64,000 nt of DNA from Bilabrum cf. latius. Lineage: Eukaryota. The stretch is from contig OZ237741.1 of NCBI GenBank assembly GCA_965178125.1, positions 186,001 to 250,000 of the forward strand, in the 5' to 3' direction. The notes under the pieces were generated by a model. It did no database searches. It had not been told where the DNA came from and saw only the letters and a list, made by a program, of their open reading frames with translations. The stretch's first letter is position 1. The number at the start of each line of letters is the position of its first letter. The translations under genes were made by a program, and so were the position numbers. Below are positions 1 to 60,725 of the stretch, piece after piece.

Positions 1-1928
1 GAACAAGCCGCCAGGAGGGCAGACTTGCCCGTCCCTCCCGGCCCCACGACCACCAGGGGCTTGTTCCCTGGCACAGGAGCCGCTGCAGGAGCGCCCCACG
101 CGCAAACGCCCGGCACAAGCCCCCCTTCGCCTCGGGCCAGAGCGCCTGTCGCGCTGCGCATGAACTGCAGCAGCGCCCCTTGTTCCCTGGCTCTGCCCAC
201 CAGCACCTGCGCCCTGCCTCTGGCAAACTGGTGCGCGCCGATCACGTCAGCTGTGACCCGAGGCAGAGCTGCCTTGACTGCCGCTTGCCATGCCGATAGT
301 CGCTGGGCGGGTACTACCCTGGGCATCGATGCAGCCCCACGCTCCGCCAATGCGCTCACCGGCTGGTCCCCCTCGGACTTGGGCCCTGCCACCTGCCCGC
401 CCCCGTCCCACCACTCGCCCGCCTGTCTCCTCTGCTCTGTCCCAGTGAGGTGCCCCAGCACCCCCGGGGCCACTCCCGCCTCTCTCGCCCGCCTGCCCAC
501 CTCTTCTCGCAGAGCTCCTTCCAGGCTTACGGCCATGTCGGCGGCCAGCTGCAGCAGATACCCGGGGTGCGAGTCCACTCCCACGGTCACCGGAGGCAAG
601 TCACCTGCCCCTGCACCGGCACCTGCACCTGACCCTGACCCTGCACCTGCACTCGCCAACTCTTTGTCCTATTCCCCACTCTCTGCTTGCTTCTCCGCCT
701 GATCTTTCAGATACCGCTCGCTTCCACGCTCTGGCTGTCCAAACTGCACCTCATACCGGTAGATGCAGTCATGGTCGAACAGCCCGCCGACCCCTCGGTC
801 TGGGTACCCCTGCACGATGGCGCGCAGGACGGCCAGCCGAGCACTGGAGTCCTCTCGGTCCGCTGCCCCGTCCACGAATCCTCGGCCTGTGGCGGTGTCC
901 TTCCCCGTCAGCGTGTCACCGTTGGTCAGTGTCCTCACGAATGCGAAGCGGCGGCGGGCGTCCCCCTCGGATCCGGGGCCAGAGGCCGCATTCTCGGCCG
1001 ACTGCACCTGCGCTGCCCGTATGACCTCTTGCTCGGTCACGGAGCTCTCCCAGACGGTCTCCAGCGCCTCCAAGTCGGGCGGGATCACCCGTGCTTGTCC
1101 TGGCCGCAGGGGGTGGGGGCCGACAGCTGGGAGGGCACCGGCGGTGGGCCGGCCCTGGTGGATCCGCAGAGAGGAGCGCACGCTTGCCAGCAGCGCGCAC
1201 TGACGGTCCCACCAACGATTGCTCTCCGCGCGAAAGTGAGACACATCGGATCCAGTGGCATCTTCCTGGGCCGGTTCTGCAGCTACCAGTGCCGCGACTA
1301 GTGCCGAGTACTCCTTCATCGTGCGCAGGCGGTACCGAGCTGGAATCACGTTCGACTCCAGCACATAGCACGCGTCAAGATTTTCTAGAGCATCGGGACT
1401 GTCTCTGCACGCAGCCTTCGTACGGCGCATTTGTGGCAGCGATAGCTCTGGAGGCGGTGCTCGATACCCCGACCGCGCAGTCTAAAAGAACAGAAAGTAA
1501 GGGCCCGTGCTCGTCTACCTACACTTGTCAATCTACTCAAGGCACAAATTGATTGTTTGGTGATTCGCAGTGGCTTCATTCCGTATGCCCCAGCGCATGT
1601 CGCACAACAAAACGGTGAGACCCAGCGATCTTGCGGCTCTTGACAGGTAGGGCTCGACTAGCTCCATCATCGCGTGCCGTTCGCTTTTGGTGTCCACAAA
1701 CGTACTCGATGAGAATATTCGTACTACGTTCGTTGTCGGAGACGTAACGTTAGAGGCTCGTTTGCCCGCTAACCACTCTTGCGAAGCGACCGTGGTGTCC
1801 GATGCATCGGGACTGAGACCCGAATCCCGCGCCTATTGGCGCTTTTCTCGCAAGCGCTGACGAGCTTCTTCAATGGCGTGAACCCATAGTGGATCATCAA
1901 TACTATCTGGGATGCGAGCAACTCGCAT
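1..1928 (-). CDS. DUF4062 + NACHT/P-loop protein (NWD1/NWD2/TEP1-like), 3' end beyond the window; start uncertain
   Basis: One frame is interrupted only by TAG (1833, 1533, 1515, 1482, 669). It reads VRIFSSSTFVDTKSER...DMRWGI...LCLE*IDKCR*TSTGPYF, typical of the DUF4062 N-terminus. A Walker A motif KPLVVVGPGGTGKSALL lies near position 60-20. Confidence 0.8.
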
Positions 1929-2189
1929 GCTGCAAAGATATGCGTTGCCCTTCGGGGAAGCTTCCCCTTGTGAAACCGGAAGAACCGTCCGAAACCGCCG
2001 CCCAGCAGGTTCAGGTGTTCCCACTGCCGCAGACCATGGAGTCAGCGCCCGCTCATTGTCAAACCGCCGCGGCTGCTACGTCAAGTTGGCCGCCAGCTGG
2101 CACAATATTCTGCGCGCGGTTCGTCGCTGCGTTCCGGTTCCCGCCACACGGCCGTGGTAGCATGTGCAACTTGAACTCCGATGCGCCTC

Positions 2190-5100
2190 TCAACCTCTGT
2201 GTCCCAGGGCGCGCTGCAGTGCCATGCTAGCTCCAGCCGACAGGAACGGCCTGTCAACACCAGCAGAGCCGCCCCGACTGTTCCTTGCCCCCTCGCCTCC
2301 CCCATTCGCCCTAGCCCCAGCACCGCCGGACGGTTTCCCAACAGCCGACCCACCCAGCCGATTGTCCCCGTCCAACTCCCTCAGTCTCCGATCCGCGGCG
2401 CTCGCTGCCCGCCTCGTCGCTGCGGCCCTCTTCGCCCGCTGGCTCCGCAACATCGCCATGCCCTGCCCCACCAGCTCGCCCGCACCCACCCGCGGCCGAC
2501 TCCTCGTTGGAGCCCCCGTCCACCGCTCCAGAGTGCTGGACCAGGCCCCTGTCCCGTCCATCGTGCCGCTGCCTGACTTTGCCCCCGCACCCGCCGCCAG
2601 CAGCGCGTGTGCTCTGCCACTGCACAGGGTAGACACGAAGGGCCGCCTGGGTCCGTTTTGTCTGCCACCTGCAGCAGGTGAGCCCGTGCCAGCACCGGTG
2701 CCAGCACCGGTGCCAGAGCCGGAACTGCGGCCGACGAACGTTCCCCTCCCGACCTGTGGATGACTGCCACTATGCCCTTGCTGGCCGACCGATCCGGATC
2801 CAGTGCCTCGCATGGAGCCCGCTCTGCCCATCGAGCTCCCCATGAGGTCCGCGATCGGCCGGTCTTCATCGAGGTCTCTCGAAGCACCCGCGCGATCTTG
2901 CGCCGCGATTGCACCGCCTTGCGCTGCACCCGACATGGTCCGCCGCTTTTTCCACACGTTCTCCCTTGCCGCGCCCATCGACGGTGCAGCATGGCCGCTG
3001 CTGGCCGGCGGCACCCTGGCATTGCCGTGGCGACCTGTGGCAAAGTTGCCGGTATCTTCGTCATCGGCGTCGCTCCCGCTGCTTGACAGCTCGATCTCCA
3101 GTCCTCCAGACTTGCCCGACGCACCCCTACCGAAGGCCTTCCCGGCCCGACCTGCACCGCGCTACCCAGCGAGACCACGAAGGGGCGGAGATTCGGCATC
3201 GCTGCCCAACTCCACATCGTCGTGCTCCCCTTCCAAGTCGTCCTCTTCATCGGTGTGTCCTCCGCCTCTTCCCTTCCTACCCGTTTTGCCCCCCTTGTCC
3301 TTGCCCATCATTCGTTCGTACCAGCCCTTGCAGTTACGCATCGCCGCGGCTGCTGCACCGCTAGCTGCACCCGCCACCTCCCACAGCTTGCCGCCGCACT
3401 TCTCGGCCGTGCGCCAGCCTGCCAGACCCACGCTCGCAGCCTCTCTCGCAACCTAGCTTGCAGAACCCTCAATCACACCGAGCTGCACGAAGGAAGGCAC
3501 CGCCTCCGAGCCGCCCGTGCCGCCCAATTTCACGCCGGGCCCGTGTCCCGGTACCCCCAGCAAACGCCTTGCGCAGTTCTAGCACGTTTCACCGCAGCCC
3601 ACTCCGGCGTCCCCCGGGTCGTATTGCTACCCGAAATACCGAACCAGAGCCGCCCTCCTGCAGGTCTCTCTGTCTTCTGCGTATGCCTGCATCTTGCCCA
3701 GGAGGTCGACCGCCTGTGAGCTCTGCGTCCTGCTCTTGCGCTTTCCACGGCCCGACATGGTGATCAGGCGCTTCACACGGCCTACATCCTTCCGGGAGTA
3801 TAGCAGCACGCAGTGCGCCGGAAGGCCGTCCCTCCCGGCCCTCCCCGCCTCCTGGTAGTAGCCCTCGATGCTCTTGGGTACGGAGAAGTGCACCACGAAC
3901 CGGACTGTGGCCAAGTCGATGCCCATCCCGTACGCCACTGTCGCGCACACCACGTCAATGCGGCCGTGCTGCCACAGCGTCTGCACAAGTAACCGCTGCT
4001 TTGGAGTCATGCCCGCGTGGTAAAAGTCGGCCCGCAAGCCGCCCTCTTGCAGAGCTTTGGCTGCGCGCACGGTGTCGTCTCTCGATAGGCAGTACACGAT
4101 GCCGCTCCGAGCAGCCGAACCTGCTGATGCGGCGCTTGCAGCGGTCAGTACCGGCTCCACCTTGTCATCCGTGTTTCTCGCCCTGCTGGCCCCCATCTTG
4201 CGCCTGGATGACGCGGCTGCCCTTCCGAGTGGGTCCGAGGAGGCAGCGACCGGTGGCACTGTGGGTGGGATGCAGAGCATGCGGACCACTTCCGACAACT
4301 GGTGAAGGCCTTCTCCCGCCTTGTCTGGCTTGGGGAGCACTGAAAATATTAGATTGGGACGGTCAAAGCTCTGCTGGAACACCCGCGTAGGGGAAGAGGC
4401 AGGGGAGCTGCACCGGCGTGGGGGAAGCATATCCGGAGAAGACGGGGCCGCGCCGCCGCTGCTGCTGCTGCTACTGCTGCTGCTGCCGGCACGAGCTACT
4501 CGGCCAAGGGAGTGGGGTGCGGCCTCCGCACCGCGCGGGGCTCTGCCCTGCACCGTCTGCACGCCGATTTCCGGCCTCATCTTGAGGATGTCCATCACGT
4601 CCCTGCGTACCGTCTCGGTGGCGGTGGCGGTGAGGGCCATCAGGGGGACGCCAGGGAACGTTCGTCGCAGGTTCCTGAGGTCGAGGTATGCCTTGCGGAA
4701 GTCGTGGCCCCAGCGCGACACGCAGCTGCGGTGAAACGGCGGGGAGGTGTAGTGGGGGAGTGGGGGTGGGCCGACAGGTTGCTTGAAAGCATCTGACTGT
4801 GCAGGGCGGCGTACAGTGGACGAACGGGGCTAAGAAACGAGGACGGTAGCCGTTCATCATTAAAGGATGAAGAAAGGAGGGGCACCTGTGGGGGCGCAAG
4901 GCTCGGAGTGATTGCTTGGGCAGCCAATCGTCCTGCCACCCCAAACTCACTGGCACTCGTCTACCACGATTCGGGCGAGCAGGCCCCGAGAGTGTAGGTC
5001 CCCCAACGCCTCGGAGGCGGTGCTCTCTCTCGACGCGAGTTTTTCCGGGGTCACGTACAGCAGCTTCACCGTGGGGTCGTGCCCGTCCCTGCCCGCCCGG

Positions 5101-5681
5101 AAGAGCTCCCTGTAGACGGCCCTCACCTCCTCCTCGGTCTGCTCGCTCGAGAGATAGGACGTGGGGACTGAGACCTGCAAGTCTCGGAGCAAGGCCGATA
5201 CCTGGTCTTGGATGAGCGACAGCAGAGGCGAGACCACCACGGTGACCCCTCGGTCTAGCACGGCAGGGAGCTGATAGCACAGGCTCTTCCCACCACCTGT
5301 CGGCATGATGACCATTGTGTCCCAACCTTCGAGAGAAGCTGCGATCACATCTCTCTATAAGCCCCTGAAGGAACAGCCCGGGCCGTAGAAGAGCCTCTCC
5401 AGCGTATACTGCAGCAGGTCTGGTTCCGCTGCCGCTGCCTCGCCCCGCAGAGCAGTGCCAGTATCACCCCCATGTCCTCTTGCATCGCCTGCGGGGCGAT
5501 TGCTACTACTCTTAGCGATACGTTGGCCTGCTGAGGCTGATTGGTCTTCAACTTGGTGACCCAGCATGCTGTCCTCAGCTTCGGATACAGCGTCGTCGTC
5601 GCTCGATTCCAGAATGGCGATGCGTGGACTCTGCCTCTGCTTCCTCGCATCTCGGGAGGCGCTACCGAAAAAGGATTTCAT
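2190..5681 (-). CDS. RecQ family DNA helicase (BLM/Sgs1-like) with low-complexity C-terminal tail
   Basis: Motifs FRGL*RDVI (Q-motif), [28 protein letters not shown] across intron 4726-4950, [17 protein letters not shown] and Zn-binding CRR...C..C*NC. In-frame TAG at 5355, 3627, 3579, 3453, 3162. Ends TGA at 2190. Confidence 0.93.
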
Positions 5682-6973
5682 GTGCGCAACGTCATGCCAG
5701 CTAGGACAAAGCCATTTTAAGATTGGGGCCCATCTGAAAAAATCTGAAATCTGAAATCTGATTTAAGGTCAAGCATAACCGAACAATGGGTGCTGCGCAA
5801 AGACAGCATGACCATGACGGTGGACTTTCGTCCGCAACCGTATACAGCGAGGCAAGCCCCACTGCACCGGCCCTAACAAGATCCCACACTCCCCACTCCC
5901 TCACCTAACTCTCCGCGAGCCACGAAACACTCACCACCCCACAAACACTCTCTCTGTTCGCCATAAATGGCCTCCCCATCCATCTAGTGCCTCGCTGGTT
6001 ATAGCCCACACGCTCCTACCTGACATACCCTGTCTCCTGATATGCCTCCACATCTTCACCACTCCTCCGGAATAGGTCCCGAACAATCCTGCCCACGGGC
6101 AGAACCCCTCAGTGCTGCCGATCTCTCATAAGACAGCCCATCGACAGCCCAAATAAGACACACCCACCCAGTGCCCCTTGCTTCAGCCCACCTGGCCGTA
6201 TACCCCATCCGGCCAGGTGCCTCTCGCCCCTGTTACCCCGCACCACACTCTCCGCGGTCTCCGCGCAACCTGCAACGCATCAACCGCACGTTCCTTCTTG
6301 GTTTTCCTAGTCCCCTTGAAAACCTTCACTCGCTCACCTTTCCTCCGTTATAGGTGCTACACGAACTTCCTGTGCAGCAGTTGCTCTCTCCCTTGGACCT
6401 CCGCAAGCAACCTCAACAAGCCGTACTCTCCCCATCCAATGAGTACGCCCCGAACAGCAGACCTTCTCCCCCCGAGGCCCCTGTCCTTCTCGTTCTCGTG
6501 CCTAGTTTTCACTGGAAACAACTATTCTTGGCCCGTCCCAGGTTGTACCGCGAACATGCATCTCGCGCCAAGTCTTGTCACGGCAAGCGTTTTCGGCACA
6601 AAACTCTCACGCATGTCCGGCGCCAAACTCGCGCCTCCAAAGACATAAATTATGAGTAATTTGTGAAAATAAATGCCCACCCCGCCCGAATTCGCGCCCC
6701 AACCAAGACAAGGAGAACGGATGCACATCCAACGGCTATCAACCGATTGGCGCCAACCCTCCCACCGATCAACAGGCAGCTACTCTACTCACTTTCCCAC
6801 CACGATTACTTTGCCCCACACATCACAAGTAATAGCCGGGAATTGCAAGCCCACCTCGCATGCACCCCAGAGGCAACGAGCACGGTCCCATCTTTAGTTT
6901 TGGTTTGAATGCTGTATGTGACGAGCGGAACGAGAGCAAAAGCAACTTGCGTTTGGCTTGCATTTTGAGAGCA

Positions 6974-8798
6974 ATGCCGAAGGCAGAGAAGGGTTCTGCG
7001 AAATCTATTGCAAATAGCTGGAAGGCAAAAGGGCTGACCAAGCTCAAGTTTTATTGTCCCATCTGCTAGAAGGCCTGCAGAGATGCCAATGGCTTCAAGT
7101 GCCACAGCGAATCAGAAAGTCACCTGAAGCAGATGAAAATCTTCATGCAGAATGCTGGCGGGAAGATTTCAGGGTTTTCTAAGCAGGTAAGACTTGGTTG
7201 TCGCGTAATCATCGGCTACCTGCAACCTATATGCTGCTACCAACACACGCCGCTGCTCTGGTTGTAATATCTCTGCGCCGCAGTTTGAAGACGGTTTCTT
7301 GCGCGTGTTGAGGCGATTATTTGGCACCAGACCAGTAGATTCAAACCAAGTCTACAACGAGTACATCCGAGATCGCCACCACACGCACATGAAGGCAACC
7401 GTTTGGTCCACCTTGTCCGAGTTCATCCAGTACCTCGGCCGCACGGGCAAGTGCACGGTCGAAGAGACCGAGCGAGGCTTCACAATCCGATGGATAGAGA
7501 GAGATGCCGGCCTTTTAGCTCGGCAGGCCGCTGTAGCAGACGCGCAGAAGGAGGAAGAGGCCGCGGAAGAAGCCAGGGCCAGGGCCCTGCAGGACCTCGC
7601 ACGCATGGCGCAAGCTGCGGGCATGGAGGGCGACGGCACGGGGGTCGTGGCCGCGGCGAGGCGCAAAGCAACGGCAATCGATGCCGACGACTCGGAGCGG
7701 AAAGCTGTCAAGCTCACCAGCGCCGGGGGCAGCGGCACTGCTGCAGCAGCGTCGGGAGGTGCCAGGCTGGTACACGAACAGGACCAGGAGGCCGCTGTGG
7801 ATGGGCTGCTGGCGAGCCTTGGTGGTGGGGGTGAGGAGGAGGAGGACGATCTGCAGCGAGGATCGGTCGGTACTGGTGCTGCACCACCCCGAGGTGCACC
7901 CCAGGGAACAACGGGGGCACTGCCAGGGTTCGGGTCCATGGCGGGGGCACAGCTGCCCTCACTGCCTCCTTCTTCGTCGTCGTCCTCGTCGTCGTCAGTC
8001 GTGCATCGAGCCTCCTCATCCTCCTCTGGATCTGCAAGTGCGCCCAAGTTCCGAGTGATATCGCTGGGCACTGATGCTGCGCCGTCTGTTCCGCTAGCGG
8101 GTGCGTCCGGTTCTCGTCCTGCCGATGCAGCAGGCGAAGGGGCAGGGGCATCGGTGCTGGGCCAGAAGCGAAGCAGAGAGGAGGCCCGCAGCGGTCCTAT
8201 CAGAGGTGCCGGTGCCGGTGCTGGTGCCGGTACTGGCAGCAGCAGCGCGGCACCTCGGGTTGGCGGCATCGGCGCGGCTGGCTCGGTGATCCAGGTGGTG
8301 CCAGTACCCCCAGGGGGCGAGGCCTGGGTTCTGCGTGGGCTGGTGGTGCGAGTGGTGGACAAAGCGGCGGGAGGAGGGGTCTGGTTCCGCAAGAAGGGGA
8401 CAGTGTCTAAAGTGGACATGATGAGCGCGCCCGGAACCGGAGCCGGTGCTGCAACGGATGAAAGCGTCGACCCATTGGCTGAGGTGGAGCTGCAGCACGG
8501 CCTCGGGGTTGCGCAGCTGAGGCAATCGCAGCTGGAGACCCTGCTGGCCCGTCCCGGGGGTGCGGTTCGAGTCGTGAGGGGTGAGTGGGTGGGAGTGCGG
8601 GGGACCGTCCACGCGGTCAGCGCGGATGGCTCCAGCTTGGACGTGCTAATCACGGAAGGAGGGCCCGTTGGTGCGGTGCTGAGGGGTTTGGGCCCGGACG
8701 ATGTCTGCAAGCGGGACGTCGAGTGGGAGGCCCGGCGAGCAGAAAAAAAGAGCAAGAAGAAGAAGAAAAGTAAATCTAAAAGGGCGAGAATTGAATGA
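6974..8798 (+). CDS. KIN17: KIN17 DNA/RNA-binding protein
   Basis: MPKAEKGSAKSIANSWKAKGLTKLKFYCPIC*KACRDANGFKCH (TAG 7067-7069). Intron 7187-7283. Kin17-mid VYNEYIRDRHHTHMKATVW and C-terminal KOW-like QSQLETLL. Ends TGA. Confidence 0.95.
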
Positions 8799-8886
8799 TT
8801 GCTTTGAAAGTGGCCTCATACAAGATGGTCAAGACGCTCCTGCCGCTGGCAGGATCCAGGATCCCAATCCAATCTTCACGTCGAGG

Positions 8887-9381
8887 TCATGCTTCGTCTG
8901 CCTTGCGCTCCTCTCCATCTGCCCCTCCACCAGACTCTCCTGCAACTTTCATTGCCTTCTCGGCTTCTTCTTTGTCAACGGCATGCTCCATCAGATCCTC
9001 AAGCGATATCCCGAAGTCTGCCTCGAGCACGTGCCTGTGCGTGGACTGCAGAACAACCGGCGGCGCCTTACCCGCATCATTTGCCTCCTTCCACCGAAGC
9101 GCGCAGAGGCACCACTAATCCCCATCTTTCAAACCGGGGAAGCCATACGCTGGCATCGGCGTCATCAAGTCGTTGCCCCTCGCTTTGGAATACTCTAGAA
9201 AGGCTTGCGTTACCCGAGCGCACACAACATGCCTACCGGAGTCCAGCGGGCCAGTGTGGCAAAAACCATCTCGATAGAATCCAGTTACAGGATCCCTGCA
9301 GCAACACTGCAAAGGAGTGCCGAGCACATTCGTTGCAGATGCAGACACGTCACCCGATTCATTCGCTGCAGCGGCTGCCAT
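8887..9381 (-). CDS. DUF2237 family protein, copy 1
   Basis: NVLGTPLQCC.DPVTGFYRDGFC...HVVCA...GNDL...FPGLKDGD*WCLCALRWKEA. TAG at 9115 is inside the conserved motif. Ends TGA 8887. Confidence 0.88.
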
Positions 9382-9710
9382 AGTAGCAGATACAGTGATT
9401 CTTCTTGCTCGAGAAAAAACTCTTCTTGGTTTAAATACTGCCTGACAAGTACTCTGAACAGATCTTGTCCACCTTTGCATACGATTGTGAGCCTGCCGCC
9501 CGCCGAACCCTGCCGCCGGCGATGTTCCGCTGACCACGATTTAGGTGTGACGATTCGACCGCCACAGCGCAACAACAACACAATTGCAGGCTCAGCACAG
9601 CGTGTGAAGACCTTTTGTCTCCGGTGGTGTATGGTGAAAACGTGATAGGCCGCCAGAAGTCGTTCCAGCTATACAAGCACACACCGTGACGCCGTCCGTC
9701 AGTAGCCAGG

Positions 9711-10328
9711 TCACAGGTCCTCGCTCTTCTCCCCGCCCTACTCTGAGCCTTCGCTCGAAGCCCCCGCGCCCACCGAATGCTCCTTGAGAACTTCCATCGA
9801 AATCCCGAAGCCACCGCCGAGCACGTGCTGGTGGGTGGCGGCCAAGTCGACCGGTGGGGCCTTTCCCGATGCCAGCGCCTCCTTCCATCGCAGAGCACAG
9901 AGGCACCACCTGTCTCCGTCCTTCAGGCCAGGAAAACCATACATGGGTGACGGGGTCATCAGGTTGTTTCCTCGGTCTCGGCTGAACTCGAGGAACTCTT
10001 GCGTGACCTGCGAGCACACGACGTGGTTGCCGCTGTCGTCTGGCCTTGTCTTGCAGTATCCCGTGCGGTCATATCCCGTCACAGGGTCTTTGCTACACAG
10101 CTGCAGCTTGCCTCCCAGTACGTTCGTTCCCGCGGATTCTGCATTGATCGGTGAAGTGCTGGGTGATCTACCAAAATACTGGTGCGGGGACCTCCGATGT
10201 AGCAGCCCTGATCAGTCACTCAGCACAACCTTACTCTGGTCTCTGTTCTATCTGGCTACACCAATGGCTTTTGCGTGGACTAACAATGCCGGTAGAACCA
10301 GACACACACTTGCTGCAATGCTGCACAT
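9711..10328 (-). CDS. DUF2237 family protein, copy 2, with putative signal peptide
   Basis: Exon 1 MCSIAASVCLVLPALLVHAKAIGVAR*NRDQ, intron 10139-10234, then NVLGGKLQLCSKDPVTG...GDRWCLCALRWKEA. TAG at 10248 and 9738. Ends ...KSEDL-TGA at 9711. Confidence 0.82.
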
Positions 10329-10587
10329 ACTCTTTGTTTCTATTTGGATCGGTCTCGACCGAAAAACGCAACGTTTAAGTTGGGCGGCACCAATCCCAGA
10401 GACGAATCAATGAAACAAGTCAAAATGCAATAGGCAACCAGTGTATCGCCCAGAGACTGCTTGCCGATTGCGCTGACGTGGACGCAACGGTACAGTGCAG
10501 TGCAGTTGCAGCTGCGCAAAACGACGACCGTACGAAGCTACTGATTTAGGCTGTCGCCATCGTGAAACATACTTGCCCTCAACGCAT

Positions 10588-13500
10588 TCATCGCAGCCCA
10601 ATGCTCCCGCTCTCGCCCCCATCGGCATCCGCCCCAAGGATACTAGCCGACACGGACGAATAGCCCGTCCCAGCGCCTCCCCCTGCCCCTGCTCCCGCGC
10701 CCAGCGCCGCTGCCGCCGCCCTCTTGCCCAGCACCTGGTCCACGAAACGCCCAGTTGGCACCCCGCTCGCATGCTTGGAGGCAGACGCCTGCCCCCTCCC
10801 CCCCCTCCTCGTCCCCGTCCTCCTCCCGCTCCCGCTCCTGGACCGAGACCTGTCCCCGGCAGCGGACGCCCCTTCGTCATCCATCCCAGAGATCCGGAGC
10901 GCGGTCTGGCTCAGCTCCAGCGCCTCCTGCAGCTCCCTAATCGTCGAGTCCCGGCTCCGCAACCTCCCCGCCGCCCTGTCCACCTCTTCCTTGCTCTGGG
11001 ACAGGGCGCGCTCCGCCTCCCTCCGCTTGCCCCGCTCCTCCGCCACGGCGCGATCCGCCCTGGACGCGGTGCTCAGCAGCTCCTCCCGCAGCCTCCTCAC
11101 CTTTCCCACATATCTCTCGGCTCGTGCCTTGCTGCTGTCCAGCTGCCGCCTCAGGTCCTTGGCCTCATCCGTGCCTCCCTTGCTCGCAGACTGCATGGCT
11201 CGGGCCTGCCGCCTGGCGTTCCTCTTCTCCCTCTCCGCCTCCTCCTTGGCCAGCTCGGCGTGCTTCTTCGCCTTGTCTAGCTCTTTCCGCAGCCTCTTGC
11301 TCTCGGCCTGGAGCCGCGCCCGGTCGTCGCTCTCGCGAGAGGCTGACCGCAGCAGGTCAGCCGCCTCCGCCGCGGCATCGTTGAACTCGCGGCACACGCC
11401 CAGCACGTCTGACACGGCCCCCCCCTCCTCCTCCGTGACCCCGTCCCTGGCACCCTCGCCTGCTCCCATCTTGCTCCCCGCGGCAGCTGCGAAGCCGTGG
11501 GCCTGCAACCTCGCGAGCAGGGGCCACCTCGCAGCGGCTCGGCGGGATCGGGACATGGGACTGGCCGCCGCTCCACCCTTGCCCACTGGCGCCCCATCAC
11601 CGATGCCAGCACCGGCAGCCTCTTCCCCTCCTGACTGTCCCAGGGGCATGACGCCCACCACAGCAGCCTCCAGCACCCCCGCGGCCCGCCTCACCGCCCC
11701 CTCCAGTGCCTCTGCCCTCTCCCGCACTGCCAGCCCCGCACCGCCCGCCCTCGCCTCTGCCTCGCCAGCGGCTCTCCTCGCATCCTCCACCTCGGCTCGA
11801 GACCTCCTCGCCTGCTCCTCCGCGGCATCCGCCCGCTCCCTCTCCGCCTCAAGCCGCGCCCGCACAACCGCGAGGGCAGAGGCCCTCGCCTGTGCCCGTG
11901 CTGCTACGCGACGGACAGCATCCGCCACGGCCCGACCAGCGTCGTCAAAGCCGTCCCTAACCGCGTCCCTTGTGCCCCTGCACGCCGCCCGCACGGCCTC
12001 CAGAGGGGCCCTCAGGTCTGTTCCCACGTGCCTCACCCGCAGCCCGATGGCCCTCAGCCTCGCCTCGCCCTCCGTGGAGGCGGCCGCGGAGGCTGCGAGC
12101 GTCCTCCTCGTGGCCTCGTGCTCCCTCTGCTCCGACCTGAGTGCCTCCTGTGCCTCCTTGAGCCTGTTCTCCAGGACCCCCACGCGGTCACTCGCGTCCT
12201 ATCCGTTGACCTTCTCCGTCCCTAGCTCCGCCCTGGCTCGCCCCAGCGCGTCCTCGGTCTCCTCCAGCCGCACCCGCAGCACCTGCAGCTGCGCGTGGCC
12301 CTCCGCCCTCGCCGTCTCTCCCTCCGTCCTGGCCCTCTGCAGGGCCTCCTTGGTTGCTCGCAGCTCTGCCGCCAGCTGGTGCACCTCCTGCCCTGCGCCC
12401 GGCTTGCCTTGTGAAAGAGCCCTGGCGCCGCGCGATGCCCCGGACGGCGAAGGAGACACGCCCCCGTCCTGCACCTGGACCATCCTCGACTGCCTGTCTG
12501 CCTCCACCGACAGGGCCTTCCTCGCAGCCTGCAGCTCCTCCCTGACCGCCTTCAGGTCGGCCTAGGCATCCAGCCCCTTGCGCTCGGCGTACTCCCTGGC
12601 TCGCTCGGCCTCGCCCGCCGACTGCTGACTGCTCTCCAGCTGGGCCCCGAGCTCGCCCGCCTTGCGCTGGGCCTCCTCCGCCGCCCGCTTGGCAGCCGCC
12701 AGCTCTCCACGGAGCGACTCCTCCACGCTCCTCGCCTGCGTCAGGACGTCCTCCCTCTCCGCGTCTGCCACGGAGAGCCTGCCCTCCGCCACGGACAGCC
12801 TCTGCTGCAGGTCCCCTTTGAGCTCGTCCACCCGAGCCTCCCCCCTTGCCTCTGCCTCTCTCCGTGCGCTCTCCACAGCGGCCTTGGACTGCTGCTCTGC
12901 AAGCCTCTGCGCCCGCAGCAGGGCAGCCTCGTGCTCCTGCCGGGGAACAGTGGCGTCCTTCAGGGCATCGATCTCCTGCCGCAGCCCCTCGGCCTGTTCC
13001 CTGGCCCGTCTCGCCTCCCCCTCGGCCTCCCCCAGCCGCTCCCCCATCAGCCGCTGGTACTCCCCGTGCAGCCGCCTTGCGAGGTCCTCCTGCTGGGCCT
13101 GCGCCGCGTCCCTCTGCAAGGCAGCGGCCTGGCTGGCTGCACGCACCTGCCCCTCCAGCTCGTTGATCCGTGCAGATGCGGCCTGCTGGCCGCTCTTAAG
13201 CTCCTGCGTGGCCTGCTCCAGCGACTTGTGCGCGTCGGCAAGCCGTTCCCCGGCCAGCGCCGCCTCACCCCTCGCCCGCAATGCCTCGCTGGAGGCCTGT
13301 CTCGCATCCTCCTCTGCTTGCTCCCTGCGCTGGCGGTCCTCTTCAGACTCCCTTTCTGCCTTCTCGGCCCGCTGCTGCTCCCCCACTGCCCGCTCTGCCG
13401 CTTTCTCAGCCTCTGCCTCCGCCTGCGTGCACCCCTCGCTGGCCCGATCCAGATCCTCCCTGCACCGAGCCAGCTCAGCCTCCAGAGCGCCGACCCTCTC

Positions 13501-15765: not shown

Positions 15766-15977
15766 CAGAAAAGACACTGACTGTACTGAGCACGACACCG
15801 TTGTCTAGACTACTTGTCCGGGCTGATCACTCGGCACAGATCCGGATCGCACGTTACCAATTGCAGAAAGATATGACACTGGGCTCACGGAGAATATTTG
15901 CTCAGCTAGGCTATTTGTGATGTCTCGATGACTCGCCAATTTGTGTAGCAAACTGCAACTGCCTGGCTAGTCCCGTG

Positions 15978-18419
15978 ATGATGTCTGCGTCTGCAGGCAA
16001 GAGTGGCTCGAAGCTCTTTTCGCAGGTGATGGATGACTGCCTCGAAATAATTCAAAATCCGAACGAGATGCAGGTAAGGTTGAATGAATTCAAACTGGCG
16101 GACGTTCTGTCGGTGCGGGGCCTCCTCAAGACTGCGGCTCAAGTACGTCGATTGAAGGTTCAGTATGTGGACGGAGCAGATACAGAGCTGGCAAGCATGG
16201 TGCACGACGTCGCACTGAGCGTGCCGTTGATGCAGATCGACTTCTGCGGTGCAATATCATTCTTGCGTTGCCCATAGCTTCTGAGGTCCCTGGCAGAGGC
16301 TGTAGATGCGGCAAGCGGCACCTTGGAGTGCTTGGGGCTTCCCGTAGCCCAAATGATGGATGATACTAAGCTCATTGACGCGTTAAAGGCTTCAATTTCC
16401 CAGTGTAGACACTTGCGTAGTTGTGTAGTGGAGTAGCGGTCCACAGATGGGCTGGGATGGTCGTCTGGACCGGACACGATGGATCTCGCCAGCTGCATCG
16501 CAGCTGCTCCGCACTTGAAGAAGCTCACCGCCAGGTCTCATCGGGCTGATAGCCTTTTGTGTGCCGGTGTGCTGCAGTCGAATCGGTCAATCCAGGTACT
16601 CGAGGGTGTCGACCTGTCTGGAGGACAAATGCTGGAATCATCGCGACTGTGGGAGGCGGTGGGCAGCAGCCCGAGCCTGAGAGAGCTCACGTGGCTGCCA
16701 CCTGTAGCGGGCGATACAGAAGGCATCAAGGCCTTGGAAGAGGGCATGGCGAAGAACACGACCCTCACGAGTCTCAAGCTGCGGCACGGGCTGAGCTCGT
16801 CGGGGGCCTGCTTCTTGGCGATCACGCGCGGCCTCGCCCGCAACCGACGTAACCGGCTCAGAGAGGTGTGTGTTGAGGCGTTCATCGAAAATACAGACGA
16901 GGAGTATGCGGGCAAGCTTCTGAACGTGTGCCCTCGCTTGCAGCAGCTGCGCCTGCACCGTGTGGGGGAGGAGGCGGCGAGTCACCTTGCTGCCGGCATG
17001 CAGCACCGGCACTGCAGACTCAAGCAATTGTGCATTCGAAGTCTTGAGGCCTCAGCAGAGACATAGAACGCGTTTATGGAGGCCTTGCACAGCTGCTCGG
17101 ACTCGCTTGAGAAGCTGCAGGTGATCCATTCGAACTTCGACAACGACCAAGGCGTAAGATCGCTGGCCTCCTGGCTTCGGACCAACACACGACTGGAGGT
17201 GCTGCAGTTCGGGCTATGCTCCGCCAATAGCTCTCAAGATGGTGAAGCCGCTTATACGGAGCTGCTCGAGGCGCTCTCCGTCAATGACACGCTGCTGACC
17301 GCTTACGTCCCCATGTCGCTGCCCGGACCGGCCTCCCCAAAGTTGGTAAGGGCTGTAGCAGCCATGCTGGAGTCAAACCACTCGCTGACTGCATGGGTCT
17401 GTCCCGGCATGCTGCTAGATTCCTTCCCAGGGGTCTCGCACGAAGCAGGGCCTGACGCGACCATCCTGCGCGCCCTCAGCATGAACCGCAGCATCGAGAG
17501 GTTCCGCATCAATCTCCTGGAACCTCAGGCAGCGAATGCCCAACTGCTAGAAGCAGCTGTAGGCAACCCCTCACTAGATACGCTCGGTGCATTGGGTCCG
17601 GTGCTCGGCCAGGCAACCTGCTCTGCCACACTGCAGGTGCTTAGTGACAAGGTGCCTGGCATGTTGGAGTTTCCTACCAGCGCACAGACGGACGAGGCAC
17701 ACGCGAGACGAATCTGGCCACCAAGCTCCCACACCGAGGACCGGCGGGCCTTCGTCGATCGCATGTTACGAAGGACAGAGCCGCCTGCTGCTGACGAGGC
17801 GGTGCGTCTCCTCGGTGTAGCATTTCCGTGCCAAAGGTCCTCTCACGGTGGCTTGGTGCGGCACCTCACCTTATCGGATGGGCAGCTCAAGGAGGTGTTT
17901 GAATTAGTGGTCACTGCTTTCCTCCGAGCCCTGGATGAAGTCGATTTCGCCGGCTGCTCCATCCTGGCACAGCGCCTGCTCCGACTGGCTGCAGATCGCA
18001 AGTAGCAGCAGTGTGGCCGCGAGTGGGGCGGAGTCTTCGATGCGGCCCGGCGGGTGTGTCGTGCGCACGGGGGGTGCAGGAGGGGCGAGCCGGGGGGCGA
18101 GTGGGTGGGGACCGTGAAGCGGTGCATGCAGCTGGGTGAGATGGAGGCAAAGCATCGGAGCCTTCACCTGTTGCTGTGGATGCGGGCTCATCGTGTGCGT
18201 CGGGATGCGGGCATGGTGTTCAAGGCGGCATCGGAGGGCCGTCCATTGGAGCTGGGGAAGCGTCTGCGTGTGGGGGTGCTGGGCGGAGGTCATCATGCTC
18301 GGGGTATGGTGCGTGGTGCTGATGGAGTCTTGGTGGATGTGAGCGCGTTGGAGGCAGCTCAACTGGGGGGTCACGATGAGTGCGTGCGGCTGCTGGAGGA
18401 AGCACATGGACTGGCCTGA
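15978..18419 (+). CDS. RNI-like leucine-rich repeat protein with C-terminal ankyrin-like module (paralogue A)
   Basis: Four same-frame ORFs joined by TAG at 16275, 16434, 17064, 18003. LRR units such as NTTLTSLKL, NTRLEVLQF, NDTLL, NRSIERF. Ends TGA. Confidence 0.8.
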
Positions 18420-19331
18420 TCCACAAACTGAGATTTGAAATAGTCGACGATGAGTCCATCTGATCGTGATGACCTTTACGTAAGCCGCATTAATTGCCAG
18501 CTAGACTTTCACGCCTGTCTTTATTGGCCCTGGTTGCCTCCCCAAACCACCCACCATTGCAAGAGTATGCGCACTAAGTGCACCGTACCCGATAGTCTTG
18601 GCGCCACGCCGTCACTGTCCACTATGCCGGAGCCAGTGGCATCGCCGCCTAACTCACAAGGTGGGGCTGGTATAAACAGTGACCCCCGTCACTCCCGATC
18701 CTGCCAAACACGCGCTCGGCTAAAATTTGCCAAAGACTTAGATTATTGAGGAGTGCGCCCCGGCCGATCACCTGCAAGGGAGTTACAGTGTGTCTCATGA
18801 CCTCAAGCGAGCTTGCCTGTACCGGAGGCATGCAGCATCACCCCATCGCCTCTTTCAGCAGCCGCACGCACCCATCGTGACCCCCCAGTTGAGCTGCCTC
18901 CAACGCGCTCACATCCACCTAGACTCCATCAGCACCACGCACCATACCCCGAGCATGATGACCTCCGCCCAGCACCCCCACACGCAGACGCTTCCCCAGC
19001 TCCAATGGACGGCCCTCCGATGCCGCCTTGAACACCATGCCCGCATCCCGACGCACACGATGAGCCCGCATCCACAGCAACAGGTGAAGGCTCCGATGCT
19101 TTGCCTCCATCTCACCCAGCTGCATGCACCGCTTCACGGCCCCCACCCACTCGCCCCCCGGCTCGCCCCTCCTGCACCCCCTGTGCGCGCGACACACCCG
19201 CCGGGCCGCATCGAAGACTCCGCCCCACTCGCGGCCACACTGCTGCTATTGCTTGCCGTCCGCAGCCAGTCGGAGCAGGCGCTGTGCCAGGATGGAGCAG
19301 CCGGCGAAATCGACTTCATCCAGGGCTCGGG
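17923..19331. repeat. Inverted repeat: ~17923-18396 versus ~18855-19331 (near-identical 3' ends of the two LRR genes)
   Basis: Direct reverse-complement match by eye, with few substitutions and one 3-nt indel. A further matching block is ~17730-17828 versus ~19423-19520. Confidence 0.92.
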
Positions 19332-21279: not shown

Positions 21280-21605
21280 GATGAGGACTGCGAGGCCAAG
21301 CTTATATCGTAATCAAGTCCAAGTCTCAGGTTTCCGAATGAATTATTATATAGAGGCTCAGCAACCACGGAGTACTGATGAACTACTGGATCCGGACAAG
21401 CCGCCTGCTTGTACATTTATACTCCCTCTCATTTCAGCATGCCAATAGTAGATCTAGATGCATGAGGCATTCATCAGCGAGTCGTTATGGTTGGTTCCTT
21501 CATGGTAGGCCAGCCGAGTTTGCGTCACAATGCCGCGCCCCCGTCACTACGAGGGTGAGATTGAGAATGCAGTGCTTCAGTGGCCTTCCCGGACCGGCTG
21601 AGCAA

Positions 21606-23000: not shown

Positions 23001-24695
23001 ATGGCAGCTGTTGGCGGTGCTGCATCTGGTGGCGCTGGTAGTGGGTAGCCATCTGCACCCACTGGCGCTGCTGCGGTTATGACAAAGGCCCAAAAAGCGG
23101 AGGCAAGAGAGCGCGCTGAGCAGCTGGTGCTCCAGTTGCTGTCCACCGATGACAAGGCCAATATTGATACGTATTAGCTTGCAGCTGACAGCTCTAATTC
23201 GTGCTCTAATAAAGATCTAGAGGCTGCTGTAAAATCCTTGGAGCTCGATGGGTATGTGTCCCAAACTGCCAGCTCAGTTCCTGAGTACTTTCTCACCGAA
23301 GCTGGCCAGTAGATCGAGGCAGCTGGCCAGTCTCCTGAAGTTGAACTATATAATTTGGTACCAGTAGGAGAAGAGGGCATCCCAATGAAGGAGCTGAAGG
23401 CAGCCGCAAGCCCACTGGCGTTCAAGTCTTTGAAGGATGCCTAGAAGAAGGGGTTGCTGAAGTCTCGCAAGGGGGTCGTAGTGCGTAACGTTGCTGAGGC
23501 TGACGATCCGATTGTTGGACAGCTGCGTGCAGTCAAAGCCGACAAGTCGCACGAACCAGATGCGAACATCGTGAAGCGCAAGTTTGTCAAGGTAGTGTGA
23601 GGTGCGCCCATCTTCCATGGCTTCAAGTCCGCGCGACACCTGCATGCCATCCCCACCACCACCTCATTGTCCGCTTTCTTTTCTATTTTTCTCCGTGGAA
23701 ACCGCAGCAAGGTGCGCCGGTACGAAGTGACCAGGGGGGGCTCGTACCAGCCCGTGAGGGTCAAGCCCGTGGCCGACCTGACCAAGGAGATGATGGTCTC
23801 GGGAGACTGGGAGAAGGCCACCTTCAAGCCCTACAACTTCGACGCAGAAGGGGTGGAGCCTCGAGGCGGCCACCTGCACACGCTCCTCAAGGTACGCGCC
23901 GAGTTTAGGCGGGTGCTCATGGGCATGGGCTTCAGCGAGATGCCCACCAGCCGATACGTCGAGTCCTCGTTCTGGAACTTTGACGCGCTGTACCAGCCGC
24001 AGTCGCACCCCGCGAGGGACGCCCACGACACGTTCTTCGTGTCTGAGCCCGCGGCCACTCGCGACATCCCCAAGGAGTACATGGAGATTGTGAAGAAGAC
24101 GCATGAGAAGGGCGGGTTCGGGTCGGTTGGGTACGGCTGCGATTGGAAGGAGGAAGAGGCCAGGAAGAACATCCTGAGGACGCACACCACGGCCGTGTCC
24201 GCGCGCATGCTGTACAAGCTGGCCAACCAGGAAGGCGGCTTCAAGCCTGTCAAGTATTTCAGCATCGACAGGGTCTTCAGGAACGAGGCCCTTGATGCCA
24301 CGCACCTTGCCGAGTTCCACCAGGTGGAGGGTGTGGTGGCAGACTACAACCTGGGACTGGCAGATCTCATCGGAACCATCCGCAGCTTCTTCCACCAGAT
24401 CGGCATCACCAAGCTGCGCTTCAAGCCGGCCTACAACCCCTACACGGAGCCTAGCATGGAGATCTTCGGGTACCACCCCGACCTCAAGTCGTGGACGGAG
24501 ATCGGCAACTCGGGCGTGTTCCGACCCGAGATGCTGCGGCCGATGGGGCTGCCCAAGGACGTGCGCGTGATCGCGTGGGGCCTGTCCCTCGAGCGCCCCA
24601 CGATGATCAAGTACAGGGTGAAGAACATCCGCAAGCTGTTCGGGCACAAGGTCAGGATCGGGATGGTTCGCAAGACTCCGCTGGTGCGCTTCTGA
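23001..24695 (+). CDS. FARSA: Cytosolic phenylalanyl-tRNA synthetase alpha subunit
   Basis: [64 protein letters not shown]. Exon 1 (23001-23596) has TAG at 23046, 23175, 23310, 23442. Intron 23597-23707. Ends TGA. Confidence 0.96.
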
Positions 24696-37440: not shown

Positions 37441-37593
37441 GCCTACAGAGCCTTTTTTGTAAGTTTTTTAGTTTCCAACGGTCGCCGGTTGCAACCTACA
37501 AGGGAGTTGTAACGAGTACAAATTACAAAAATCTGGAAAACTCTGGCAAGACAAATTCCAGCGTACTCGAGCTTCAGACGCATTTACAGCAAT

Positions 37594-51500: not shown

Positions 51501-51908
51501 TGCGCTATCCTTGAGCGGTACGATGCTGCGCTCCCTTGAGCGATCCGCGTGTTTGTGCAATACTCGTATTGGACATGTTTGGATGGTTCCCATTCTATTT
51601 CGTTCCTGGCAGCGTTGGGGGCTGTGCCTGCTTGTGTTCGTGGGTAGTAGCCTGGTCGCTACGTCGCTTAGGCTGAGAGCTGCCACTTTCCCCGCGTTTT
51701 CTACTTGGAGAAGTCCTTTTTGGGATGCTAGTATCGACATCCATTGCTAGCAGGCGCTGGATTTCTGCCCGCTTGCTGGCCTGCGTGCGATTAATCGGTA
51801 TGAGGTCACGTTGCGATGAATCGGTCGACGAATTTGAAAGAGGCGATTTATAACAGAGACTTATGAACGCACTAGAAACTACCGCCTCAAAGCAGCCTTA
51901 TCCGCCAT
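48577..51908 (-). CDS. CEP131: Centrosomal protein CEP131/AZI1-like
   Basis: R*LAFVDRLLGDKKAL...EKKRKEEW...ERTARAIEPEVRRLVAKH matches the recalled CEP131 core. Probable intron 51781-51872. TAG at 51879, 51595, 51505, 50710, 50638, 50164, 50050, 48910. Ends TGA. Confidence 0.78.
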
Positions 51909-59868: not shown

Positions 59869-60725
59869 ATGGACAGAATATTTGGAAGAGCCAGGCCAGC
59901 CGGCCCTGCTGCCCCAAAGGAACCGGAGCCGTCGCTGACCGACGTACTCGGGTCAAACACGGAACGTGTCAGGCTGCTGGACAAGAAGATTCAAGATTGC
60001 CAGCGAGAGGCAAGTTAGTTGGCAAAATAGGCAAAGGCTGCAGGGGCACGAAACCCTGCAGCGGCTCGATCGCTGAAAGGCAGAGCTATGCAGGCGTTGA
60101 AGCGAAGAAAGATGTACGAACAGCAAAGGAATATGATAAGCGCCACCGGGTTCAAGTTGGAAGCCACCAGCTTTGCAATTGAGAATGCGAAAGAGACGCA
60201 CAAGACCGTGCAAGCCATGAAAAGTGCCCATACCGTGAGTTGCTAGGTTCTGCTCGTACTCCCCAAGCGACAGGTCCCGACACGCTGCGAACGAATGGTG
60301 ATTGTAAAAATCCTTACATGCAAACATCGCAGACGCTCAAGACCGAGCAGGCCAAGATATCCCTGGACGACCTGGAAGACCTGCAGGACGACATGGAGGA
60401 CCTGCTCGCAGACGCCAGCGAGGTGAATGAAATCATGGGGAGGGACTTCACCCAGGTGGCGGGGCTGGACGGTGTAGACGACGCCGAGCTGGAGGCGGAG
60501 CTCGCTGGACTGGAGGACATGGACATGGGAGAGCTGGAGGGCGAGCTGGACATGGGCGGGGAAGTGGGCATGCCCACAGCGGCGGGGATGCCGGCGCCCG
60601 CCCCAGCGGCCGGGCTGCCAACCGGAGCAACGACGGGCCTGCCCGCAGCTCCTAGCGCACAGCCAGTAGCCGCCGGAGGCGGTGCTGGGGGCGTGGATGA
60701 GTACGGCGCCCCGTTGACTGTGTGA
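59869..60725 (+). CDS. CHMP5: ESCRT-III Snf7-family protein (CHMP5/Vps60-like)
   Basis: MDRIFGR...PSLTD...LDKKI...ALKRRKMYEQQR, LEDLQDDMEDLL..ASEVNEIMGR, DDAELEAEL, VDEYG. TAG at 60016 and 60028. Intron 60235-60332. Ends TGA. Confidence 0.9.

Follow-up and report, generated by a model that had tools for sequence, protein, structure and literature searches.

In-frame UAG codons in a 64-kb stretch of the Bilabrum cf. latius genome very probably specify glutamine

Conserved protein-coding genes in a 64-kb stretch of the Bilabrum cf. latius genome (hereafter the window, meaning the whole stretch that was analysed) are repeatedly broken by in-frame TAG, raising the question of whether UAG is a sense codon in this organism and, if so, which amino acid it specifies. 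An earlier note on this DNA had proposed glutamine, with glutamate as a weaker alternative, and had pointed to TAG codons at 5355, 7067, 60028, 19246, 3627 and 3579; all six proved to be in frame and to lie within a gene. When TAG is read through, the window contains 22 ORF segments of about 16,500 codons with 77 in-frame TAGs, and with TAG taken as sense these segments are terminated by TGA or TAA. Every one of the 77 breaks is a TAG, with no TGA or TAA, the ORFs being defined as free of the latter two; the two alternative frames of these segments contain 239 and 256 TGA triplets and 32 and 51 TAA triplets (this count includes one frame slip, in RecQ exon 2). Most of the 22 segments have Pfam support, and the TAG-bearing genes supported in this manner encode a RecQ helicase, KIN17, a DUF2237 protein, the alpha subunit of phenylalanyl-tRNA synthetase (PheRS), PRP3, RPC4, an ion channel, a WD40 protein, a Snf7 protein, XRN1 and a sulfatase (Table 1). 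Counted as Gln, TAG accounts for roughly one in ten of the window's Gln codons, and the base 3' of it is C in 26 cases, G in 24, A in 21 and T in 6, with no clear read-through signature at this position in the window when compared with CAG. The window has a GC content of about 63% and spliceosomal GT..AG introns, and its best protein matches are from stramenopiles, with ciliates not among them.

Table 1. Coordinates of genes, gene parts and in-frame TAG codons in the window
Feature	Position	Strand	Details
NWD1-like DUF4062-NTPase gene, N-terminal 729 codons	3..2189	-	Runs off window; Pfam DUF4062; 6 in-frame TAG, three in DUF4062 (1533, 1515, 1482)
RecQ-family helicase gene, DEAD/RecQ	2190..5681	-	Pfam DEAD, Helicase_C, RecQ_Zn_bind
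RecQ exon 1	5681..4951	-	
RecQ intron	4950..4726	-	
RecQ exon 2	4725..2193	-	
RecQ stop	2192..2190	-	TGA
RecQ in-frame TAG, n=5	5355, 3627, 3579, 3453, 3162	-	
TAG, RecQ motif-0 (Q-motif) Gln position	5355..5357	-	F-R-G-L-TAG-R-D-V-I
TAG, Y-F-G-x of RecQ zinc-binding domain	3627..3629	-	Homologue columns
TAG, C-x-N-C of RecQ zinc-binding domain	3579..3581	-	Homologue columns
KIN17 gene	6974..8798	+	PDB human KIN17 match, E 1.3e-15; Pfam WH_KIN17
KIN17 exon 1	6974-7186	+	
KIN17 intron	7187-7283	+	
KIN17 exon 2	7284-8795	+	Then TGA
TAG, KIN17 zinc finger, exon 1	7067..7069	+	C-P-I-C-TAG-K-A-C-R-D
DUF2237 gene TAG	9115..9117	-	G-D-TAG-W-C-L-C; Pfam DUF2237, E 4.7e-52
LRR paralogue A TAG	18003..18005	+	AAG TAG CAG CAG
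LRR paralogue B TAG	19246..19248	-	AAG CAA TAG CAG CAG
PheRS-alpha gene	23001..24695	+	Pfam tRNA-synt_2d, PheRS_DBD3; TGA stop
PheRS-alpha TAG, n=4	23046, 23175, 23310, 23442	+	All in N-terminal part (to 23597)
Snf7/CHMP5-like gene exon 1, two TAG (60016, 60028)	60016..60030	+	Pfam Snf7

Termination in the window falls mainly to TGA, which follows most ORFs and closes all four genes with C-termini checked by homology, namely those for PheRS, DnaJ (with its C-A-Q-A tail), KIN17 and the Snf7-like protein. TAA ends three ORFs, with no TAA-ending C-terminus among the four homology-checked ones, and in-frame TAA is absent from the ORFs that represent whole conserved genes, these being TAA/TGA-free by definition. 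In eRF1 the third base of the stop codon is read by the GTS, NIKS and YxCxxxF motifs; no eRF1 gene and no tRNA gene was found in the window or on L081, a contig from a relative that is described below.

The identity of the encoded residue can be approached through the alignment columns in which the TAGs fall. In the RecQ-family helicase, whose ORF extends 323 codons beyond its last TAG, the codon at 5355 occupies the Gln position of motif 0, as the earlier note had recognized: all 115 of the 115 homologues that align here have Q (5 of 120 are gapped) and none has E. The zinc-finger TAG of KIN17, likewise proposed to be at a Gln position, is matched by Q in human KIN17, Q in the protein P0123 and N in P0122, i.e. 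by an amide in all three sequences that make up this column; the word-based search with exon 2 yielded three proteins, of which one is a near-identical copy. Two further RecQ sites, both in the zinc-binding domain, had been listed as caveats pointing away from Gln. At Y-F-G-x the column (n=120) comprises E103, Q13, D2, Y1 and V1, and since the 13 Q carriers include the five best-scoring matches (Cafeteria among them), as well as named oomycetes, this caveat dissolves. The caveat at C-x-N-C is weakened as well: the family as a whole has D116, S2, G1 and one gap in 120 homologues, but S is found in P0004 and P0005, which both rank among the five best-scoring matches, and hence the column is not fixed in the lineage.

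Other genes offer a more varied picture. The three DUF4062 columns of the NWD1-like protein (148 homologues) are E141/148 at C-L-E-x, R35/K35/E28/Q17 and L119/148; the DUF2237 column, from 73 bacterial homologues, has R41, K16, C7, Q4, S2, G2 and N1, with E entirely absent. The TAG columns of PheRS-alpha (83 full-length homologues) contain P31/A18/T13 and others, S26/D17/G13/E9/Q4 and M63/L18/K1/V1, and the core of this enzyme (23601-24692) is devoid of TAG. In the LRR paralogues A and B a TAG occurs at the same place inside a run of Gln codons, the run being one residue longer in B, where it had originally been noticed. Across the LRR paralogue pairs TAG is opposite GCC, GGG, ATC, CAG, CGC, CAT, GCG, TCC, TAG and TTG, the last of these (Leu) in near-identical tails; these pairs are too divergent for a choice of residue, except for the Gln-run TAG and the TTG pair in the tails. 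Two family assignments of the earlier note found less support: a PDB search with the Snf7/CHMP5-like exon recovered no CHMP5 chain and one CHMP4B alignment, set aside as weak (E 0.14), and the ORF at 48580-51897, which had been called CEP131, has no Pfam match at E <= 0.01.

A metagenome scan with a single protein (P0244) recovered the contig L081, of 14,041 bp, which encodes an NWD1-like protein 57-70% identical to that of the window. Under the standard code its longest ORF has 417 aa; once TAG is translated, two ORFs open up, of 2652 and 1250 codons, with 20 and 17 TAGs respectively and a TGA at the end of each. L081, too, needs TAG to be sense. In this contig the TAG at residue 844 is in a column of Q28 and N1 (29 homologues) and that at residue 973 in one of Q27 and R1 (28 homologues), with E in neither; in its histidine kinase the F-box TAG is matched by Q, Q, Q, T and H in the five PDB chains shown, and the residue before MGG by L, Q, L, A and L. 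TAG and CAG are paired in both directions between the orthologues: the window TAGs at 1533, 1515 and 1482 correspond to CAG, CGC and AAC on L081, and L081 TAGs correspond to CAG, GAG and CAC in the window. In addition, two seemingly acidic window sites, Y-F-G-x of RecQ and C-L-E-x of DUF4062, have Q in close relatives. The evidence from L081 counts for the window only if both relatives share one code; in both (63% GC in the window and 56% on L081) UAG is sense and TGA follows most ORFs.

Column likelihoods placed Gln at the top in all 12 settings. Its lead over Glu, which varies with the site set and the pseudocount, is 2.7-5.6 log10 units for the 11 window sites, 5.5-8.2 for the eight L081 sites and 8.6-13.8 for all sites. 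Whenever the site set includes the window, Glu comes second; Gln outscores Leu, Lys, Arg and Ser by far in every setting, and Leu never enters the top six. In a control, 11 sites were drawn at random 2000 times from those of a known residue: true-E sets were mistaken for Q 31 times, R sets 14 times, K sets 3 times, S sets once, and L, D, A, M and N sets never; furthermore, of the 54 true-E sites that these alignments contain, none lies in a Q-majority column. Together with the RecQ and KIN17 columns, this bears out the earlier preference for Gln over Glu. Across the 11 window TAG columns, RecQ motif 0 is all Q, but Q is the commonest residue in only one of the 11, as against 13/29 for CAG/CAA columns (Fisher p = 0.06), and several conserved columns are dominated by E, D, L or M, namely those at RecQ C-x-N-C, two in DUF4062 (one of them the only column of the 11 with L as commonest residue) and one in PheRS-alpha, where M and L prevail. 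The window TAG columns have on average a larger share of E (0.20) than of Q (0.13), and for Q the TAG set scores -2.6, where the 5th percentile for randomly drawn true-Q sets is 2.4. The window TAG sites thus look less Gln-like than ordinary Gln codons in the same genes, a deficit that is marginally significant.

Could the TAGs be absent from what is translated? Contigs with the RecQ joint 4725->4951 (GT..AG, minus strand) were found in the runs X5, X6 and X7, and one with the KIN17 joint 7182->7280 (GT..AG with the cut placed +4) in X5. These three runs come from two studies, and their RNA status is a guess, with X5 flagged as probably DNA; no RNA runs are listed among the sequencing runs searched, and the deep DNA run X2 reads through the RecQ intron. 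Over the TAGs at 5355, 7067, 3627 and 3579 the spliced contigs have no other letter, the RecQ codon at 5355 being kept in X5 record 11 and X6 record 19 and the KIN17 codon at 7067 in X5 record 13, and no alternative letter was seen at any coding TAG within 1-10000 in four runs from three studies. With both the RecQ and the KIN17 TAGs kept in intron-less contigs, neither RNA editing nor sequencing error is a likely cause, and we rejected RNA editing, pseudogenes and assembly error on the basis of these spliced contigs and of run contigs without other letters. That the TAGs are untranslated for any such reason, be it assembly error, pseudogene lesions, RNA editing to CAG or small unrecognised introns, is extremely improbable also in view of the composition of the breaks, as gene decay would generate all three stops whereas only TAG is found; moreover, essential genes such as that for PheRS-alpha are hit and the independent contig L081 has the same pattern.

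Among the readings in which UAG is translated, glutamate, to which UAR is assigned in the peritrich and Blastocrithidia codes, draws on the acidic family majorities at RecQ Y-F-G-x and C-x-N-C and at DUF4062 C-L-E-x, on the higher share of E in the window columns and its second rank in the likelihoods, on the one L081 TAG that is opposite GAG in the window, and on a TAG set in an acidic stretch of the WD40 gene. It is nevertheless very unlikely, given that E is missing from RecQ motif 0, from the amide column of KIN17, from the two Q-rich L081 columns and from the DUF2237 column, that close relatives have Q at two of the acidic sites, that none of the 54 true-E sites lies in a Q-majority column, and that the likelihoods for E trail those for Q throughout. 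An ambiguous or context-dependent reading (Gln along with, for instance, Leu, or partial termination), or a single residue such as Leu, Lys, Arg or Ser, has in its favour the shortage of Q in the TAG columns, the hydrophobic columns in PheRS, DUF4062 and the L081 kinase, and the TAG opposite TTG in the LRR tails. Also compatible with it are the gene at 34657-37467, in which a TAG (34666) precedes TGA by three codons and could be a true stop, and the ORF at 41093-44323, which has no TAG in 1077 codons (Poisson P = 0.006, uncorrected for the 22 segments). We regard this reading too as very unlikely: the Q deficit is marginal, the four other residues score far under Q in all settings, and true-L sets were not once called Q. 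In the case of Leu, the Asn of the L081 orthologue indicates that the DUF4062 'L' site is polar in the lineage, and termination is at odds with the long conserved sequence that follows nearly every TAG, as in RecQ.

We therefore hold it to be very probable that UAG is an ordinary glutamine sense codon in the nuclear code of this organism, with UGA, and probably UAA, still serving in termination. The likely mechanism follows the model discussed for Iotanema (PMC5304391): a tRNA-Gln in which the anticodon CUG had become CUA would decode UAG but not UAA, provided that eRF1 recognised UAG less well. Transitions between CAG and TAG would afterwards be synonymous, and TAG would be expected to spread into Gln positions and other tolerant ones. 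The scarcity of TAG at Q-majority positions could mean that the new meaning has yet to spread fully, or that decoding is less accurate at UAG than at CAG/CAA.

A code in which UAG is Gln and UAA and UGA are stops (the Iotanema/Protocruzia type) corresponds to NCBI table 15. Reassignment of UAG alone to Gln is an already known, rare type of change, here apparently in a new, stramenopile-like lineage. In the fornicate Iotanema spirale UAG is Gln, UAA is kept as the primary stop, and eRF1 has a T32G change in the GTS motif, according to Panek et al. 2017 (PMC5304391). To judge by that account the two cases agree in that only UAG became Gln, very probably so in the window, with UAA and UGA apparently not used as sense here, and in that the assignment is derived from conserved columns; they differ in that the lineages are unrelated, the best matches here being stramenopiles, and in that TGA ends most ORFs here, whereas UAA is primary there. 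UAG alone is also Gln in Protocruzia tuzeti and two phyllopharyngean ciliate lineages, according to PMC11687900; codon and amino acid are the same as here and UAA does not share the change, as seems to hold for the window too, but the window, with its GC content, its GT..AG introns and its non-ciliate best matches, is unlike these ciliates. The same paper lists UAR as Gln (the NCBI table 6 type) in many ciliates, Ulvophyceae, hexamitin diplomonads, Streblomastix and Amoeboaphelidium. These codes resemble the present one in converting a stop to Gln, presumably by an anticodon-mutant tRNA-Gln, but they read UAA as Gln too, whereas in the window three ORFs end with TAA and none has it in frame, TAA/TGA-free as these ORFs are by definition. 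Other UAG-only changes that PMC11687900 mentions are found in the rhizarian exLh (Leu), Scotinosphaera (Ser) and Oligohymenophorea sp. PL0344 (UAG = Glu, UAA = Lys); UAG is uncoupled from UAA in them as it appears to be here, but it stands for another residue, and in our columns Gln outscores Leu, Ser and Glu alike. Nuclear codes with UAG changed without UAA are, in this 2024 account, those of an uncultured rhizarian, Iotanema, Scotinosphaera, Protocruzia and a few other ciliates (PMC11687900).

A literature search on stramenopile code changes, covering main texts outside subscription journals, found no published report of this reassignment. It may be, though we consider it somewhat less probable than its opposite, that this is the first recorded nuclear code change in a stramenopile-affiliated lineage and that it marks a clade rather than a single species. 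In practical terms, gene callers that apply the standard code truncate this organism's genes at each TAG; in public protein collections its proteins and those of the relative appear only as fragments, with ends exactly where the window has CAG, and a translation table with TAG as Gln is advisable for annotating the genome. Nuclear changes of UAG without UAA are rare, and another independent, GC-rich, non-ciliate lineage would provide a further test case for how eRF1 discriminates UAG from UAA and for the origin of tRNA-Gln(CUA).

With TAG read through and translated as X, the window, whose GC content is about 63%, yields long ORFs with clear family matches, and its genes are eukaryotic with few GT..AG introns. 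In-frame TAGs number 77 in about 16,500 codons across 22 ORF segments (4.7 per 1000), and those cited in the earlier note, which read UAG as a glutamine codon (5355, 7067, 60028, 19246, 3627 and 3579), were all confirmed in frame in the sequence. The segments that reach a stop are mostly terminated by TGA, with TAA in three, and TGA ends all four C-termini checked against homologues, namely those of PheRS-alpha, KIN17, the Snf7-like gene and DnaJ, whose last residues read C-A-Q-A. A coiled-coil gene carries a TAG three codons upstream of its terminal TGA, and this could be the one place in the window where TAG is a true stop. One ORF lacks TAG where about 5 would be expected (Poisson P = 0.006, with no adjustment for the 22 segments). 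The nuclear DUF2237 gene shares 46-68% identity with its bacterial homologues, the best match being from a cyanobacterial MAG (61%), a similarity that suggests a bacterial or plastid-derived origin.

Features of the window and of L081, a metagenome contig from a relative (family match: match of an ORF with TAG translated as X)
Feature	Coordinates (strand)	Remarks
NWD1-like DUF4062-NTPase protein	3-2189 (-)	family match
RecQ helicase	(-)	family match; domains DEAD, Helicase_C, RecQ_Zn_bind
Spacer between divergent RecQ and KIN17	5745-6880
KIN17	(+)	family match
KIN17 repeat insertion	8205-8235	36 additional bases
DUF2237 protein	8890-9384 (-)	family match
LRR paralogue A	15921-18416 (+)	4 TAG
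LRR paralogue B	18841-21312 (-)	9 TAG
Coiled-coil gene	34657-37467 (-)	TAG at 34666
TAG-free ORF	41093-44323 (+)	1077 codons, no Pfam match
Phenylalanyl-tRNA synthetase alpha (PheRS-alpha)		family match
DnaJ		family match
PRP3		family match
RPC4		family match
Ion channel		family match
WD40 protein		family match
Sulfatase		family match
Snf7/CHMP5-like protein		family match
XRN1, C-terminal part		family match
L081 NWD1-like DUF4062-AAA-HTH-WD40 gene	within 1178-12900	2652 codons, 20 TAG, ends TGA; orthologue of window 3-2189
L081 hybrid histidine kinase	within 1178-12900	1250 codons, 17 TAG, ends TGA

In RecQ, positions 4725 and 4951 are adjacent in contigs of the public sequencing runs X5, X6 and X7 (two studies), which omit an intron of 225 bases with GT..AG borders on the minus strand; in KIN17, a contig of X5 connects 7182 directly with 7280, leaving out a 97-base intron. 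The deep DNA run X2 is continuous across the RecQ intron. Because the joints are canonical we infer that the intron-less contigs represent spliced mRNA, the RNA status of their runs being itself a guess, with X5 flagged 'probably DNA'. They cover the TAGs at 5355, 7067, 3627 and 3579 without any other letter, and at coding positions within 1-10000 no difference is listed in the four runs. Whether or not these contigs derive from RNA, TAG-to-CAG editing, sequencing error or the decay of pseudogenes would explain the TAGs poorly; under decay, TGA and TAA would have arisen too. Within 1-10000 the runs deviate from the window solely in the RecQ-KIN17 spacer, where about 19 substitutions and 2 indels are listed; contig depth there is much raised, reaching 914 in X2, and this points to an element that is repeated or variable. 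KIN17 shows a coding-sequence length polymorphism: the insertion, found in X2, X5 and X6 contigs, is a GCTGG-type repeat within a Gly/Ala-rich low-complexity part.

Homologues were collected using translations with X at TAG. Among 120 RecQ homologues, the motif-0 column (5355) is Q in all 115 aligned, the YFGx column (3627) reads E103, Q13, D2, Y1, V1, and the CxNC column (3579) D116, S2, G1. The earlier note had taken the latter two as pointing to Glu; the family-wide majority is indeed acidic, but the Q at YFGx occurs in 13 sequences that include the five best-scoring matches (one being Cafeteria) and the named oomycetes, and two of these five have S at CxNC. The KIN17 column (7067) rests on three sequences, the word-based search having yielded little, with Q in human (PDB) and in the homologue P0123 and N in P0122. 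Other columns are more varied: R41, K16, C7, Q4, S2, G2, N1 in 73 bacterial DUF2237 homologues; P31/A18/T13 and others, S26/D17/G13/E9/Q4, and M63/L18/K1/V1 at three N-terminal columns of 83 full-length PheRS-alpha homologues (of 120 found, sequences under 480 aa being dropped); and E in 141, R35/K35/E28/Q17 and others, and L in 119 at three DUF4062 columns of 148 homologues.

The majority residues at the 11 window sites are Q, E, D, R, P, S, M, R, E, R and L. Q is the column majority at 1/11 TAG sites versus 13/29 CAG/CAA sites (Fisher p = 0.06), and the Q score of the TAG set, -2.6, is lower than 2.4, the 5th percentile for sets of true Gln sites. Where the two LRR paralogues have near-identical tails, TAG lies opposite TTG once. 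For this lower Gln-likeness the favoured reading is that TAG-coded Gln may be younger, having arisen partly by single-base changes of GAG, AAG, TTG, TCG or AGG at tolerant positions; less faithful or mixed decoding of UAG is a less favoured possibility. In a simple column likelihood (weights raw or Henikoff, pseudocounts 2 or 10) Q ranked first in 12/12 settings, exceeding E by 2.7-5.6 log10 units at the 11 window sites, 5.5-8.2 at 8 L081 sites and 8.6-13.8 at both together. When random 11-site sets from the same alignments were passed through the same classifier (2000 draws), Q was miscalled for 31 sets of true Glu sites, 14 of Arg, 3 of Lys and 1 of Ser, but for none made up of Leu, Asp, Ala, Met or Asn sites. 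The tail-to-tail LRR paralogues share 389/866 identical columns, with the final ~230 residues almost identical and the remainder diverged; judged from this pattern, their 3' ends look like the product of recent gene conversion.

A search of representatives recovered three short proteins closely related to the NWD1-like gene, and two of them stop exactly ahead of a window CAG; as their contigs far exceed them in length, the protein ends reflect stop calls and not the limits of the contigs. One contig of this kind, L081 (14,041 bp, 55.6% GC), has a longest standard-code ORF of 417 aa, and because reading TAG as sense opens two large ORFs, both terminated by TGA, this relative shares the habit of in-frame TAG. 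A GH39 fragment follows them. Together they contain 37 TAG, 67 CAG and 56 CAA, such that TAG would make up about 23% of Gln codons, roughly twice the window's share. In well-aligned orthologue pairs, window TAGs face CAG, CGC and AAC, and L081 TAGs face CAG, GAG and CAC; by these pairs the nearest relative has Q and N at the window DUF4062 sites that look like E and L family-wide. L081 TAG residue 844, in the L-D-S-L-D-Q-L motif of the NWD1-like family, is Q28, N1 in the 29 homologues passing a local filter (at least one HSP failing it shows R), and residue 973 is Q27, R1 of 28. The kinase F-box TAG corresponds to Q, Q, Q, T and H in the five PDB chains listed, and four further kinase sites are mixed in residue.

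In PMC11687900, UAG-only reassignment to Gln is described for Iotanema spirale, Protocruzia tuzeti and two phyllopharyngean ciliate lineages, and to Leu, Ser or Glu in other lineages. As the Gln type is already known from these organisms, the window organism would be a further case of a known kind of code. Its best named matches belong to the stramenopiles (Cafeteria and oomycetes for RecQ; diatoms, Chrysoparadoxa, Parmales and Ectocarpus for PheRS-alpha); best hits of two genes, as distinct from a phylogeny, would accord with a stramenopile affinity. Full-text searches, covering mainly the main text of articles outside subscription journals, turned up no account of an altered nuclear code among stramenopiles. 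Reading UAG without UAA would be possible only with an anticodon-CUA tRNA, which would lie one mutation away from tRNA-Gln(CUG). By analogy with Iotanema, eRF1 would also need to lose UAG affinity; PMC5304391 proposes that an eRF1 T32G change lowers it there.

Public protein collections carry the genes of the organism and its relative solely as TAG-cut fragments (proteins P0121, P0245, P0244 and P0246). Standard-code gene calling has broken the proteomes of both.
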